Part shown: positions 194 to 33,993 of the stretch, one piece after another
How positions within the stretch are numbered: position 1 is the first letter of the stretch
Layout: each line of letters opens with the position of its first letter
Virus record (IMG/VR): IMGVR_UViG_3300037478_000558
Span: 1-56,503 of that record
Strand: one strand, 5' to 3'
DNA: 56,503 bases
Origin: a virus
Taxonomy: Duplodnaviria; Caudoviricetes
Position numbers and translations under genes: made by a program
The notes under the pieces: generated by a model
Told to the model about the DNA's origin: nothing
What the model saw: only the letters and a program-made list of their open reading frames with translations
Database searches by the model: none

Positions 194-1774
194 TTACTCC
201 GCGAAGAAGCCGCGCACGATCTTGGCGAGCGCGAACTCGTCGATCGTGCGGATCTGGTTGCCGTATGCGATGGCGAGAAATGCCACCTGCCCATCGATCG
301 GCCCGCCAGCCGCCGCGGGCCGGCTGTCCCCGATGCGCAGGGGGTTCGCGTTCGCCAACTCAAACTGGCAGGACAGCGGCGTCGCTCGCTCGATGTGCGA
401 GGCAAAGCGCGCCTGGCACACGGAGCGGTCCACCACGGCCACGGTCGCGATCCAGGTGTCGGTGCGGTTCGTGCGCGCGGTGAGCAGCACACGCGATGCG
501 TCCGGGCCGCTGCCGGCGTCGAGCCGGAACTCGAAGACCGGATTGGACACGTCCGGCCGCACGAAGAGATTCCACCCAGGGAACTCGCCGCTATCAAGCT
601 GCTTGCCCGCGTAGGCCGAGGTCACCACAGGGAACGCGCGGAGCTTGAGCACCGAGACGATGCAAATCGAATCCGCGTCGCCGATGTCGCCGAGCGTCGT
701 GCTTGTCGCCCGGTAGGCGTCCGTGTTCGCCCCGGTGAAGTCGTATACGTCGGTGCCAAGCTGGCCCTTCAGGTTCGCGCCCGTGACGATGCTCGCCGCC
801 CCCTCCGCGGTCAGTGCATCGCCGCTCACGAGGTCGCTCAGTCCGCCCAAGTAGATATGGGAGAACGTCAGCCCGGTGAGTACGGTCAGCTTCTCCTCGG
901 TCGTCAGCGGCCGCTCGACGATGGCCTTCACGCCCGCGCCCTTCACCTGCCGGATCATCTCGCGGATCGACGCTACCGTGCCATCCCCGGCATCAGCGGG
1001 CAGGATCACGATGATCGTGACCGGTGACCGCGCGCCGATGCGGTACCCCCTCGACAGGTACGCGCGCGCGCTGGGCGTGGCCGTCGTGCGCACCTCACCC
1101 TCGAAGTATCGATCCACCCTCCAGGTCACATCCTCGTCGAGCCCGACCTGCGCACCCGCCGATGCGAAGACCGCGCCGTTCTCGTCGATGGCGGTGATCA
1201 CGCTCTCGCCGTCGTGGTCGTCGCTGCCGGTGAGCGTGATCCGATGCTCCTGCACCGGGAAGAAGAGCCGCAACGGCGCGCGCGCAAAGCTGTCCGTGGG
1301 CGTGAACACGAAGGTCCCCGCCGCCTCGCCCGCGGCGAAGGTGCCGCCGGTGCCCTCGTCTGCCTCGTACACGCCGAGGAAGATGCGATCGCGCCGGAGC
1401 TCCAGCAGTCCGACGTCACCGACCACGCCATCCGCGTCGAGGATGTCCTGGATGCCGTCGAGAAGCGCCCCGCGGGTGACCGCGTCCGGGATGCTCTGGA
1501 GCCTCGCGCGCAAGGCATCGTCGCTCTCGCCGTCCTGCCGGTTGGTCCCCTGGTCGCGCGCGTGCTGATTGAGCCAGTCGGGATCCGTGGCATTTGGTCC
1601 ATCCGCATCGCCGATGCGAAGCTGATCCAGCCAATACCGGATCGTCGTCATGGCCGCCCCGTGCTGCTTGGCCATGCCGGGGAGGATCTCGTCAGGGCCG
1701 GTGCCACGAAGCCACGAGGGAAGCGACGCGCGCGCGAACTCGAGCAGCTCCTCTTCTTCCGCGGTCAGGGCCAT
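194..1774 (-). CDS. Baseplate wedge/tail protein (P2 gpI-like N-terminus) with C-terminal LamG/ConA-like domain
   Basis: Follows baseplate J; motif WLNQHARDQG..RQDGESDDALRARL; beta-rich C-terminus ending LRIG..GPIDGQVAFLAI. Confidence 0.65.
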   Translation of the reverse strand: MALTAEEEELLEFARASLPSWLRGTGPDEILPGMAKQHGAAMTTIRYWLDQLRIGDADGPNATDPDWLNQHARDQGTNRQDGESDDALRARLQSIPDAVTRGALLDGIQDILDADGVVGDVGLLELRRDRIFLGVYEADEGTGGTFAAGEAAGTFVFTPTDSFARAPLRLFFPVQEHRITLTGSDDHDGESVITAIDENGAVFASAGAQVGLDEDVTWRVDRYFEGEVRTTATPSARAYLSRGYRIGARSPVTIIVILPADAGDGTVASIREMIRQVKGAGVKAIVERPLTTEEKLTVLTGLTFSHIYLGGLSDLVSGDALTAEGAASIVTGANLKGQLGTDVYDFTGANTDAYRATSTTLGDIGDADSICIVSVLKLRAFPVVTSAYAGKQLDSGEFPGWNLFVRPDVSNPVFEFRLDAGSGPDASRVLLTARTNRTDTWIATVAVVDRSVCQARFASHIERATPLSCQFELANANPLRIGDSRPAAAGGPIDGQVAFLAIAYGNQIRTIDEFALAKIVRGFFAE

Positions 1775-27333: not shown

Positions 27334-28434
27334 ATGCCACCCTACCTTGACGAGCGCGCCAAGCGCTGGCGCTGGCGCTGCCGTATCACCCTGCCCGCCG
27401 GCGAAGAGAAGCGGCCGAGCGGTACGCCGAAGCGCAACACCAAGCGAGCAGCAGAAGAGGACGAGCGGCTCACGGTCGAGGCGATGATGCGCGCATCGCT
27501 CTACCCCACCAGACCACCGGCGCCCACGCTCGCCGAATTCGCCCCGCGGTTCCTCGAGTGGTCCGCAGCCCGGGCAAAGGGCGGCGCTGACGGACGCACG
27601 CACACGAACCGAGCAATTGCCCTCCGACTGCATATCCTCCCCGCACTCGGCCGCCTACTGCTCGACCGGATAGGCACCGAGGCTCTCGACCGCTACACCT
27701 CGCAGATATCCGCAACGCCAAGCCTGACCCGCCCAGACCGCACGCTCAGCGCGGGCACCGTTAACCTCCACCTGGCCACGATCTCGGCCATGCTTCGCCT
27801 TGCCGAACGCTGGCAGGTGATCGAGCGCGCGCCTGTGGTCCAGGCGATCCGGCACAAGCCTGCCGTCGTCTGGCTCACCGAGGAGCAGCTCGATGCGATG
27901 ATCGCCGCAGCCCCTACCGACCAGCTCCGCGCCATGATCATCGTTGCCGCCCGCGCCGGCCTGCGCCGCGGTGAGCTCCTGGGCCTGCGCTGGCGCGATA
28001 TCCAGGGCGACACGCTCCTCGTCTCCCAGCAGATCACGCCCACCGGCGCGATCACGAGCACCAAAAGCGGAAAGGTGCGCCCGGTGCCGATTCTCCCCTC
28101 AGTGGGCGATGCGCTGGCGCGCCTGCCCCGCGTCGATGAACTGGTCTTTCCCCATCGCCACGGCGGGGCGCAGCTCGTCCGATCGGCCGACAAGCGGCTC
28201 GCAGTGCTGGCCAAGAGCGCCAAGGTCCATTGCCCCGGCTGGCACGTCCTCCGGCACACCTTCGGCGCGCAACTTGCGCAGCGCGGATGCCCTCTGCCCG
28301 TGATCCAAGAGATGCTCGGACACGCCGATATCCGCACCACGATGATCTACGCGAGCCTCGCACCAACCAGCGCCGCGCACTGGATCCGCGTTCTGGCCAA
28401 CCCACGGCCAACGGAACCCGGACAAGATCGCTAG
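27334..28434 (+). CDS. int: Tyrosine integrase
   Basis: GLRRGELLGLRW (R), TKSGK (K), HVLRH (HxxR), LGH and TMIY (Y). Confidence 0.93.
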   Translation: MPPYLDERAKRWRWRCRITLPAGEEKRPSGTPKRNTKRAAEEDERLTVEAMMRASLYPTRPPAPTLAEFAPRFLEWSAARAKGGADGRTHTNRAIALRLHILPALGRLLLDRIGTEALDRYTSQISATPSLTRPDRTLSAGTVNLHLATISAMLRLAERWQVIERAPVVQAIRHKPAVVWLTEEQLDAMIAAAPTDQLRAMIIVAARAGLRRGELLGLRWRDIQGDTLLVSQQITPTGAITSTKSGKVRPVPILPSVGDALARLPRVDELVFPHRHGGAQLVRSADKRLAVLAKSAKVHCPGWHVLRHTFGAQLAQRGCPLPVIQEMLGHADIRTTMIYASLAPTSAAHWIRVLANPRPTEPGQDR

Positions 28435-31752: not shown

Positions 31753-32118
31753 ATGGACGCCAGGTACACCACTCAGATCGGTCGCGCTCGCCACTCCGCC
31801 CGCCCCGGGCGTGAGAGCCTGAGCAAGCGGCTGGGCAAGGTGGCTCGCCAGATCCGCGAGCGGGACGGCCACCGCTGCCAATACTGCGCCGCCACCGCGG
31901 AGCAGAGTGGCGCGCACCTCCACCTGGACCACCTGACGCCGCGCTCGGCTGGTGGCGAGGATGCGGCGACCAATCTCGTACTTGCCTGCCGGCGCTGCAA
32001 TAGCGCCCGACAGAATATGACCCTGGCCCAGTGGGCGGCCTACGCCGCCACCAAGCTGGACCTTACTTTCTCACCCCGCGCGATCCGCGGGCAAGCCCGC
32101 CGGCGCCTGCCGGCGTAA
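31753..32118 (+). CDS. HNH endonuclease
   Basis: RDGHRCQYC, HLDHLTPRSAGG, NLVLACRRCN. Confidence 0.92.
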   Translation: MDARYTTQIGRARHSARPGRESLSKRLGKVARQIRERDGHRCQYCAATAEQSGAHLHLDHLTPRSAGGEDAATNLVLACRRCNSARQNMTLAQWAAYAATKLDLTFSPRAIRGQARRRLPA

Positions 32119-32128
32119 GGAGACGACG

Positions 32129-32407
32129 ATGAATGCGATGACGACGATTGTGCAGTTTTTGGTCCGCCACCTGAAGACGGGCGCGAACCTCGTATCGACG
32201 CTGAGCGGCGCCACGAGGCACGCTCTGGGCCTGGATGCCTACGGCTCGCGGCTGCTGGCGCTGAGCGCCTGGCTGTGGGAGCTGGAGGACTCCTCCCCGC
32301 TGCGTACCGTGCCGTGGTCAGCGCTCGCAGAGCGCTACGAGTCTATCGCCGGCCGCTACGGGGCCGAGTGGACCCCAGCGCTCCAGCTCGCCGTGTGGCC
32401 GTCGTGA
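32129..32407 (+). CDS. Hypothetical protein
   Basis: RBS AAGGAG-ACGACGATG. Confidence 0.6.
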   Translation: MNAMTTIVQFLVRHLKTGANLVSTLSGATRHALGLDAYGSRLLALSAWLWELEDSSPLRTVPWSALAERYESIAGRYGAEWTPALQLAVWPS

Positions 32408-32610
32408 CCTTCACGCTTGGCCACGAGCCGTCAGAGCGCCTGCTGGCGCTCTTGCGCGGCGCTCACGACGATGACACGGCACCGCTGGCTGTGCAGTGGG
32501 ACGCGCCCGCGCTGATCGTGCTGCGCGCGGACAGCTCGGAGCTGTCGCCGTGGGAGGAGATCGATGTGCGAGCGATCTTGGCGGCCGACGGGGTGGCCCC
32601 AATAAAATAA
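32404..32610 (+). CDS. Hypothetical protein
   Basis: GTGA coupling; stop lies inside promoter copy 2. Confidence 0.45.
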   Translation: MTFTLGHEPSERLLALLRGAHDDDTAPLAVQWDAPALIVLRADSSELSPWEEIDVRAILAADGVAPIK

Positions 32611-32658
32611 CCCTATTTGATTTTTCCAGTTGCGCTCGGCCGGGCCCGGGTGTAGAGT
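32604..32658 (+). promoter_or_regulatory. Early promoter module, copy 2 (UP element, TTGCGC-N17-TAGAGT)
   Basis: Repeat of 31689-31745; followed by 5' hairpin GGTTC..GAACC and RBS. Confidence 0.78.
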
Positions 32659-32704
32659 GGTTCTCAGGTCGGCAGTTGAGCCGGCCGGAACCGAGGAGAT
32701 GACG

Positions 32705-32956
32705 ATGACGAAGCTCACCAACGCACAGGAAACGGCTATGGCCGCGATGGCGGATGGGCCGCTTCGCGTCAGTCGCACGGCGGGAATAGGTGGGTCTGCC
32801 TGGCACGCTGAGCACGGGACGATCCTCAATCGCACGCTGGCCGCGCTGGTCGGGAAGGGCCTGGTCGTCGCCACCCACGGTGCCACTCGTATCGAGCGCG
32901 CCTACAGCGGCACGCGCACTTACCTGGTCACTGACGTGACCTACAAGCTGAGCTGA
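32705..32956 (+). CDS. Hypothetical protein, possibly winged-helix
   Basis: RBS GAGGAGATGACGATG; KLTNAQ...TLAALVGKGLV pattern. Confidence 0.6.
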   Translation: MTKLTNAQETAMAAMADGPLRVSRTAGIGGSAWHAEHGTILNRTLAALVGKGLVVATHGATRIERAYSGTRTYLVTDVTYKLS

Positions 32957-32973
32957 GCTGAAAGGATAGAGCC

Positions 32974-33168
32974 ATGGCCTTCCAAGCAAGTATTCCTGGT
33001 AGCCCAAACTCGATGATTGTTCTGAGGCCGTCCAAACATGGCTGGCAGTGCTCAGCGTGCCAGGCGGTATACCTTGATCTCCGCGGGCGAAACGCTGTCC
33101 AGGAATGCCGTTGCGGGCACGCGGTGTTTGTCCCGGTCCCAGTGTTTTCGTGCGCCGAGGTGAAGTGA
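32974..33168 (+). CDS. Small Zn-ribbon protein
   Basis: CSAC...CRCG; RBS AAGGA. Confidence 0.5.
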   Translation: MAFQASIPGSPNSMIVLRPSKHGWQCSACQAVYLDLRGRNAVQECRCGHAVFVPVPVFSCAEVK

Positions 33169-33192
33169 TGCGGCCACGCTACGTGTTTGAGA

Positions 33193-33290
33193 ACTGATCA
33201 CCGAAACCGGCCTGAGCCGGTCGCGCCGGGTGGACTCCGGCGCCTGATGACCCTACGGGGACCGCGGCATGGTGTCGCGGTGGCAGTCCA
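33193..33290 (+). ncRNA. Type II hammerhead ribozyme with loop-I pseudoknot and core insertion
   Basis: GAAA 33203-06, stem III ACCGGC/GCCGGT, GUC site (C33222), stem I GCGCCGG/CCGGCGC, CTGATGA 33244-50, stem II TCACC/GGTGG, loop I TGGACT complementary to AGTCCA. Confidence 0.72.
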
Positions 33291-33300
33291 GGAGATGACG

Positions 33301-33495
33301 ATGAACCTACGTAATACCGAGACGCACGAGACCGCACCCGCCCACGTGATCGGCACGACCACCGAAGGCGACACGCTGGTCCGCTTCGCCGATGGCTGGG
33401 AGCCCGACGACTTCAACGGCGCGCTGACCGAGGACGGCTGGGTCGTCGTGGACGACGAGGAGCCCGAGGAGAACACCCACGGGCGCGGGCTGTAG
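33301..33495 (+). CDS. Small acidic protein
   Basis: RBS AGGAGATGACGATG; 16 D/E vs 3 R in 64 aa. Confidence 0.65.
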   Translation: MNLRNTETHETAPAHVIGTTTEGDTLVRFADGWEPDDFNGALTEDGWVVVDDEEPEENTHGRGL

Positions 33496-33511
33496 CCGCT
33501 CCACTTCGCCC

Positions 33512-33564
33512 AGATGCCGACAGGCGTTTCACTTTTCACCGCGCCTCCGGGCGCAGGAGCCACG
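33512..33564 (+). repeat. Intergenic hairpin/RBS module A, copy 1
   Basis: AGATGCCG-N4-GCGTTTCACTTTT(C)ACCGCGCCT(A)CCGGGCGCAGGAGCCACG shared with 35914-35966. Confidence 0.85.
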
Positions 33565-33993
33565 ATGACTACCTATTCTGTCTACCACGGCGGAAGTCTC
33601 CACGGCACGGGCCGCTCCAGCGGCCCTCACGATACCTGGCACGAGGCAGCCATCGCCGCCCGGGAGTCGGCTCGGATGTTCGGCGCCGACCAGATGATCT
33701 GCGACGACAACGACGAGTACCGGCAGTGGCGGCTCGGCCAGTGGAGCCGCCACCCGCGCCGTATCGAGGTACTCCCGCCAGCGCCGCCCGACGACCCGGC
33801 GCCGGCGCCCAGCGAGGCGCAGCGCACCTACCAGGCGGCCTACGTGGCCGCTCAGCCCGGGCGCAGCAAGACGAGCCGCGCGGCCGCTCGGCGGGCGGCC
33901 CGGGAGGCTGTGAGCGCCGCGCACGGTCCCGCGTGGCTCGACGCGCAGGGCAATCCGCGACGTACGCTACCGCTCAGCGCAGAGGTAGCGTGA
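33565..33993 (+). CDS. Hypothetical protein
   Basis: Starts right after module A RBS. Confidence 0.6.
   Translation: MTTYSVYHGGSLHGTGRSSGPHDTWHEAAIAARESARMFGADQMICDDNDEYRQWRLGQWSRHPRRIEVLPPAPPDDPAPAPSEAQRTYQAAYVAAQPGRSKTSRAAARRAAREAVSAAHGPAWLDAQGNPRRTLPLSAEVA

Follow-up and report, generated by a model that had tools for sequence, protein, structure and literature searches.

The complete virus record IMGVR_UViG_3300037478_000558 (56.5 kb, direct terminal repeats, G+C 64.7%) carries, just upstream of a small gene, an RNA element built like a type II hammerhead ribozyme, with a structured insertion at the edge of its catalytic core. The whole stretch of 56,503 nucleotides (nt) was analysed and is called the window below. 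On its + strand an intergenic region of about 344 nt (32957-33300) shows a weak coding signal in the profile of G+C at third codon positions (GC3), and the hammerhead fills the last 100 nt of this region, with every conserved type II element present at 33198-33290. An earlier note on this DNA had described the same architecture, in which two hairpins separate A9 from G10.1; each of the elements that it listed is found in its place, base for base, and all base pairs were verified by script.

The element begins with the 5' strand of stem II (UCACC, 33198-33202, with C11.1 at 33202), followed by the core nucleotides G12, A13 and A14 (GAA, 33203-33205), which align to the conserved GAAA of Rfam family RF02276. 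Stem III (ACCGGC-CUGA-GCCGGU, 33206-33221) consists of 6 base pairs (bp), namely A15.1-U16.1 and five G-C or C-G pairs. C17 lies at 33222, where a GUC aligns to the GUC of the model, and the cut is predicted between 33222 and 33223. Stem I (GCGCCGG/CCGGCGC, 33223-33243) has 7 bp and is closed by the loop GUGGACU, which includes the 5' strand of a pseudoknot (33231-33236). It leads into the core nucleotides C3-A9 (CUGAUGA, 33244-33250), where the Rfam alignment marks the posterior probability with an asterisk throughout.

The insert comprises 28 nt (33251-33278) between A9 and G10.1. Hairpin A (CCC-UACG-GGG, 33251-33260; 3 bp) directly follows A9 and is joined by the linker ACC (33261-33263) to hairpin B (GCGGCA-UGG-UGUCGC, 33264-33278), which has 6 bp including one G-U pair, a pair that forms only in RNA of the + strand. 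The linker may instead pair with G79, G80 and U81 of the 3' strand of stem II. That strand (GGUGG, 33279-33283, with G10.1 at 33279) pairs with 33198-33202 as U-G, C-G, A-U, C-G and C-G, giving 5 bp with a single G-U. One nucleotide further on, AGUCCA (33285-33290) forms six Watson-Crick pairs with UGGACU of loop I (duplex energy -7.0 kcal/mol). This pseudoknot, already proposed in the earlier note, has the usual type II position and length, loop I pairing with the tail after stem II as Perreault et al. (2011; PMC3088659) describe. The ribosome-binding site AGGAG (33290-33294), 6 nt before the ATG at 33301, has its first base (33290) in common with the pseudoknot strand. The insert is single-copy in the genome when searched at up to 3 mismatches, and among the fetched loci its exact sequence occurs only in L001, the window's own region.

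With type II hammerheads (RF02276) the element shares the order of GAAA, cleavage site and CUGAUGA, the loop-closed stems I and III with an open stem II, and an intergenic position in a phage, just upstream of a gene. Its core, hairpin stems and loop-I pseudoknot are those of the family, and its blocks (G, 33198-33211; S, 33216-33229; C, 33237-33250) follow the classic type II order GSC. The difference lies in the connection of the core to stem II: C11.1 adjoins G12, whereas G10.1 lies 28 nt past A9; the score, too, is under the gathering threshold of the model. Because it departs from the family in contiguity and in score, the element is a hammerhead-derived variant and not a canonical Hammerhead_II member.

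Significance and folding

The Rfam model Hammerhead_II aligns to 33202-33250 with 33.4 bits (E 2.8e-5 in a scan of 33100-33400, 301 nt). The alignment covers model positions 4-56 of 66, comprising GAAA, stem III, GUC, stem I and CUGAUGA. A search with this model, proposed in the earlier note, thus returns a match, but one that stays below the gathering score because stem II falls outside the alignment; at gathering thresholds Rfam finds nothing in the window. Across the 56.5-kb genome it is the sole Hammerhead_II match (E 1.2e-6). The bare linear motif is not significant, a loose pattern for it being expected 1.9 times by chance.

The insert together with the stem II strand folds better than shuffled sequences (z -2.64; 4 of 200 as good). 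The minimum-energy fold of 33190-33300 is the hammerhead fold, with stem II and both insert hairpins, while in the centroid fold hairpin B is lengthened by ACC/GGU pairing instead. The pseudoknot is compatible with either arrangement, and the predicted 3' cleavage product, folded alone, contains a 9-bp extended hairpin B.

Rarity, a second lineage and modular copies

Ordinary phage hammerheads provide the background against which the insert is to be judged. All fetched loci, 2.57 Mb in total, were scanned with a descriptor in which GAA, H17 and CUGAnGA are combined with hairpins for stems III and I; it yields 205 unique type II motifs. Stem II adjoins A9 in 182 of them and follows a 1-nt insertion in 20; the remaining three are the window and the loci L159 and L171, the latter two having entered the set only through targeted searches. 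The single-bulge motifs interrupt the same bond as the window and then continue with a normal stem II and pseudoknot; they carry 1 nt where the window and L159 have 26-28 structured nt, L171 and its identical copy L182 being intermediate with 7 nt. In the sample with the same stem III the extra base is U in 13 of 14 motifs and A in one, and in a further locus (L296) it is C. Judged from these sequences, phage hammerheads seem often to bulge at the A9/G10.1 bond. Among the 202 ordinary motifs stem II most often has 3 bp (range 2-6), and a pseudoknot of at least 4 bp is present in 140, with a linker of 0-1 nt in 132 of these. The displaced 3' module of the window has this canonical geometry, with a 5-bp stem II, a 1-nt linker and a 6-bp pseudoknot. 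The contact with the ribosome-binding site, to which the earlier note had drawn attention, is real but not special: a Shine-Dalgarno-like word and a start codon lie within 60 nt after A9 in 173 of 199 sampled type II motifs.

Pattern scans of IMG/VR and of contigs, from which the window's own record was excluded, agree with this picture. The same stem III words with CUGAUGA occur in at least 116 IMG/VR stretches, and in all 130 other matches listed for those loci stem II stands at A9 or one base later; typically a pseudoknot strand comes next, then a Shine-Dalgarno word with a start codon. The stem III words themselves (CCGGC...GCCGG) recur in more than 116 IMG/VR loci (L002-L117) of very different G+C content, and in several phages single genes are flanked by two or three hammerhead copies (three in L071). 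The core words combined with CCC-N4-GGG gave 3 stretches in IMG/VR and 73 in genome contigs, all chance matches, as were all those of a further scan that yielded 4 stretches. A looser hairpin-A pattern gave 29 stretches in IMG/VR, of which one is a real hammerhead (L296, with a 1-nt insertion) and the others are chance. None of 50,697 phage records contains a match to the insert. The closest cultured-phage sequence is the canonical hammerhead of Streptomyces phage Tefunt (NC_054665.1), which is 81% identical over 33202-33253; the match spans GAAA, stem III, stem I and CUGAUGA and ends 3 nt past CUGAUGA. Its occurrence in a Streptomyces phage may hint at an actinobacterial host.

A metagenome scan that fixed only GAAAC, GTC, CUGAUGA and CCC-N4-GGG returned 82 stretches with 80 matches. 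Stems I and III are real in three of these, namely L159 and L171/L182, the last two being identical; the other matches reach at most 8 summed stem pairs and are read as chance. On the minus strand of L159, GGC precedes GAAA, a 9-bp stem III and C17, and a 6-bp stem I with the loop UUUGAGCAU leads to CUGAUGA. After A9 come CCC-UCAC-GGG, A, UCGCC-GCGA-GGCGA and G, then GCC, complementary to the GGC in front of GAAA, an A, and GCUCA, which pairs with UGAGC of loop I; GGAG and ATG lie further downstream. The stem II strand is thus offset by 26 nt after A9, compared with 28 in the window; stem II has 3 bp, the linker 1 nt and the pseudoknot 5 bp. In this one distant example every helix is formed, and apart from hairpin A, whose stem is the same, none of them has the sequence found in the window. 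Hairpin A of L159 was imposed by the search pattern, which fixed only the core words and CCC-N4-GGG, and so does not count as independent; the observations of hairpin B, stem II, the 1-nt linker and the pseudoknot do. Both the minimum-energy and the centroid fold of L159 are the hammerhead with its insert (z -2.73; 2 of 200 shuffles as good). A MAFFT alignment of the two elements sets GAAA out of register, and Rfam finds nothing in the whole of L159, L171 and L182 at E up to 0.01.

The gene upstream in L159 encodes a replication factor C (RFC)-like AAA+ ATPase, which indicates that this contig and the window are unrelated in gene content. An acidic open reading frame (ORF) of 71 amino acids (236-451, minus strand) also lies upstream of the L159 hammerhead; its TAG stop falls inside stem III, so the ribozyme overlaps the end of a coding sequence. 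An explanation by a halophilic, high-salt setting was considered and rejected: the L159 proteins look acidic, but the window proteome is not hyper-acidic (D+E 0.137, K+R 0.124), so high salt offers no general explanation.

The hammerhead of L171 (4560-4662, minus strand) is identical to that of L182 (1627-1720, + strand). Its insert, CCCGGAA, follows A9 and precedes GGGCU (stem II) and CAGCU (pseudoknot). In the minimum-energy fold the insert pairs with the 3' strand of stem II, and GCCC of the 5' strand pairs with an upstream GGGG. This element is possibly a short relative of the insert variant, and the modelled fold suggests that it could be a switch or a decaying copy.

Closer relatives come from six sediment or soil DNA runs that cover part of 33000-33600, no RNA run being listed for this stretch; four of the six were compared, all as contigs, and one of the six may be the source of the window's own DNA. 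X2 record 3 is identical to the window over 32869-33349 and X4 record 18 over 33104-33254. X3 record 9, a contig of 550 nt, aligns to 33195-33489 (9 differences, 1 gap) behind 254 nt of unrelated sequence. The six differences that are listed all fall within 33298-33419, and up to three more could lie inside the ribozyme. Behind 33290 it has an extra C, and this 1-nt insertion shows the sequence ahead of the ATG to be non-coding. The alignment of X3 record 10 (618 nt) is confined to 33201-33290 and is ungapped, with 6 differences (93% identical). Both flanks of this record are unrelated to the window, and the downstream one has its own GAGGAG...ATG. As the match runs ungapped through 33251-33290, this copy contains the insert. 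A weak joint in X4, whose shorter side has 22 letters, has its break at 33290 too. The unit from the 5' strand of stem II to the pseudoknot thus behaves as a module that includes the insert and is bounded at 33195/33201 and 33290. Hammerhead modules may also mark mosaic or recombination boundaries between phage gene cassettes.

The virus and its genes

The minus strand encodes the structural genes of the virus, which extend to about 21.4 kb, and a long + strand block begins at about 25.6 kb. This block includes a tyrosine integrase (27334-28434; Pfam PF00589, E 9.5e-26) and an HNH endonuclease (31753-32118) and is also rich in small ORFs that match no family. The virus is probably temperate. 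Its portal protein has a best cultured-phage match of only 28% identity, so that there is no close cultured relative. Seven loci were collected as portal-based relatives, one with 95% identity (a 5.7-kb contig) and six with 40-43%, and the best Hammerhead_II match in the 5 of their records that were searched reaches only E 0.011 (16.4 bits).

Before the element, 32630-32956 (+ strand) is coding by the GC3 profile and the overlapping minus-strand ORF is non-coding. The intergenic part 5' of the ribozyme (32957-33197, about 240 nt) has a weak coding signal in the same profile, and the small ORFs at 32974-33168 and 33038-33163 have a low GC3. Neither a sigma-70-like promoter nor an intrinsic terminator was found within 32300-33700. 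The downstream ORF (33301-33495, + strand) has a strong coding signal, GC3 reaching 0.88-0.96 in its frame, and encodes an acidic protein of 64 amino acids (isoelectric point 4.07) with no PHROG or Pfam match; neither this protein nor the downstream one of 159 amino acids has relatives in IMG/VR. A comparison of 32900-33600 with the 50,697 phage records by blastn gave no match.

Function and competing explanations

Drawing on the sequence, we lean towards an active type II hammerhead variant with a structured A9/G10.1 expansion, which would process a transcript of a temperate phage upstream of the ribosome-binding site of a small gene. Activity is the best reading because the core is intact, the tertiary partners are canonical, a second lineage has the same layout and the unit has spread as a module. 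After A9 the strand would leave the stack, form hairpins A and B and re-enter as G10.1, and the two hairpins and stem II would make a four-way junction on the stem II side of the core, with linkers of 0, 3, 0 and 0 nt in the window and 0, 1, 1 and 0 nt in L159. In one stacking isomer stem II would still sit on the A9-G12 pair, as in normal hammerheads, and the insert would project outward at a backbone site that already tolerates bulged nucleotides. The RNA would be part of a + strand transcript of the small-gene region, cut between 33222 and 33223. Cleavage would free the 5' part, held only by the 5-bp stem II, and the 3' product, with its 5'-OH inside the stem I hairpin, would carry the insert, the pseudoknot and the AGGAG/ATG of the 64-amino-acid gene. 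This role is the one usually proposed for phage hammerheads, the cutting of a long transcript just upstream of a gene. The earlier note had spoken of an early transcript, an assignment that is inferred from gene order only.

Known hammerheads provide partial parallels. In Perreault et al. (2011; PMC3088659), clustered prophage hammerheads cleave polycistronic RNAs of about 2 kb. A halovirus 5' end was mapped there near the cut site of HHphage, which lies 13 nt upstream of a start codon in an early transcript. HHphage and HHmeta, both from salterns, are natural hammerheads with extra core nucleotides, as in the window. Their insertions, however, have 2 nt and stand next to C3 and stem I, and they need very high Mg2+ or salt, cleavage being strongly impaired at ordinary Mg2+; in the window C33243 (2.1) is directly followed by C3 (33244). 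The core insertions described in that paper are of 1-2 nt only (A6a, U13a, and 2a/2b in the saltern variants), and matches mispaired next to the core were rejected. The non-circularly permuted hammerheads of types SGC, CSG and GCS (Eckert 2023; PMC10085705) likewise connect the three-way junction in an unclassic way while keeping all core bases. Their block order is changed, whereas that of the window is the classic one, and what is broken here is the integrity of 'Block C', i.e., CUGAnGA with its adjacent stem II strand. No report of a long A9/G10.1 insertion was found in the literature covered, that is, the literature apart from the supplementary alignments of Perreault et al. (2011; Dataset S1, Figures S6/S7) and Eckert (2023), which might hold one; within this scope the two-hairpin arrangement has not been reported for hammerheads.

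Several observations weigh against an active ribozyme. The score of 33.4 bits lies below the Rfam gathering score of 37, and as a whole the element folds no better than shuffled sequences (z -1.37; 20 of 200 as good). A competing fold, without stem II and with hairpin B extended, has -42.4 kcal/mol, against -41.2 for the hammerhead fold. The insert falls in the A9/G10.1 region, which is a known metal-binding site. The variant is, moreover, very rare: at this bond the 202 ordinary motifs never exceed 1 nt, the same stem III with three non-G bases after A9 was found neither in IMG/VR nor in metagenome contigs, and genome contigs gave no real match for the insert variant. L159 itself scores only 24 bits in Rfam (E 0.0062, 221-nt scan), and the comparative support consists of one distant example and close variants whose differences are only partly listed. 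The one listed difference of the six in X3 record 10 is 33243 C>A, at the base of stem I (partner 33223). According to Eckert (2023; PMC10085705), hammerhead alignments hold at most 1-2 extra nt between CUGAnGA and the adjoining stems, and the 'Block C' of that paper is built on this limit.

The low score, the extreme rarity and the isoenergetic competing fold would also fit a disabled relic, in which a 28-nt insertion into an ordinary phage type II hammerhead abolished or crippled cleavage; such a sequence would still be present owing to its young age or to some other use of its hairpins, for example as 5' structure of the mRNA. Insertions of more than 2 nt at A9/G10.1 being absent from the published alignments just cited, and the impairment caused by even the 2-nt saltern insertions, point the same way. 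We nevertheless regard a relic as rather unlikely. All core bases, stem II and the 6-bp pseudoknot are intact, and after an inactivating insertion one would not expect stem II and the pseudoknot to keep canonical geometry. The recurrence of the layout in distant L159, there too with stem II and pseudoknot intact, and as a module in the sediment contigs, including a 93%-identical copy in another genomic context, argues against a freshly broken element; two independent two-hairpin insertions at one bond, with tertiary partners kept, are unlikely for junk. Still less credence is given to coincidental hammerhead words in inverted repeats that act at the DNA level as operators or recombination sites. 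The homology breaks at 33195/33201 and 33290, at mosaic boundaries, and the weak helix-turn-helix-like gene upstream (phrog_14387, E 0.0078) would suit such sites, but the genome-wide Rfam match and the fit of pseudoknot and stem II geometry to ribozymes do not, and the G-U pairs, which occur in hairpin B and in stem II, would count as mismatches at the DNA level or in the other strand. This explanation is very improbable.

A gated hammerhead, in which the insert serves as a folding switch or as a docking site for a protein or small ligand and decides whether stem II forms, would make cleavage conditional. In engineered hammerhead aptazymes an extra domain on the stem II side can control folding; there the aptamer is fused to the distal end of stem II and not placed between A9 and G10.1, and, unlike in those constructs, no ligand is indicated for the window. 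When ACC (33261-33263) pairs, hairpin B can grow to 9 bp and G79-U81 are tied up, and the fold with this pairing is the centroid and 1.2 kcal/mol more stable than the hammerhead secondary structure. In L171/L182, too, the insert pairs with the 3' strand of stem II, neither strand of this stem being free in the minimum-energy fold. Slower phage variants may, as Perreault et al. (2011; PMC3088659) speculate, respond to signals. The ACC/GGU pairing that the earlier note read as a switch is thus real and nearly isoenergetic; a switch is not a conserved property, however, since L159 lacks an equivalent pairing and has the active fold as its centroid. In 33100-33400 no match to an Rfam aptamer family was obtained at E up to 10, the tiny hairpins with their stable-looking tetraloops (UACG, and GCGA in L159) look structural rather than ligand-binding, and exchange of only 3 bp would make a shallow trap. 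Gating is accordingly doubtful, less probable than a relic and more so than a DNA-level site. Equally tentative is the fuller form of this idea: whether GGUGG pairs with the ACC of the insert or with the 5' strand of stem II would depend on a factor from phage or host, on a ligand or on how fast transcription runs, and the ribozyme would thereby set the stability and translation of the downstream small gene. In a broader sense, hammerheads would then tolerate whole domains in Block C.

Hammerhead search descriptors and the 2023 permutation theory assume that the gap between CUGAnGA and stem II never exceeds 1-2 nt. Should the RNA fail to cleave, it would be a rare disabled ribozyme whose tertiary partners are kept in two lineages, which would itself need explaining. 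If, as favoured here, the RNA does cleave, the ribozyme survives the insertion of a folded domain at the A9/G10.1 bond, and searches built on the older assumption would miss such variants, of which this one is sub-threshold in Rfam. The bond would then be a natural site in the hammerhead where regulation could attach, and, if domain insertions in Block C are tolerated, current descriptors may be passing over a hidden population of ribozymes.

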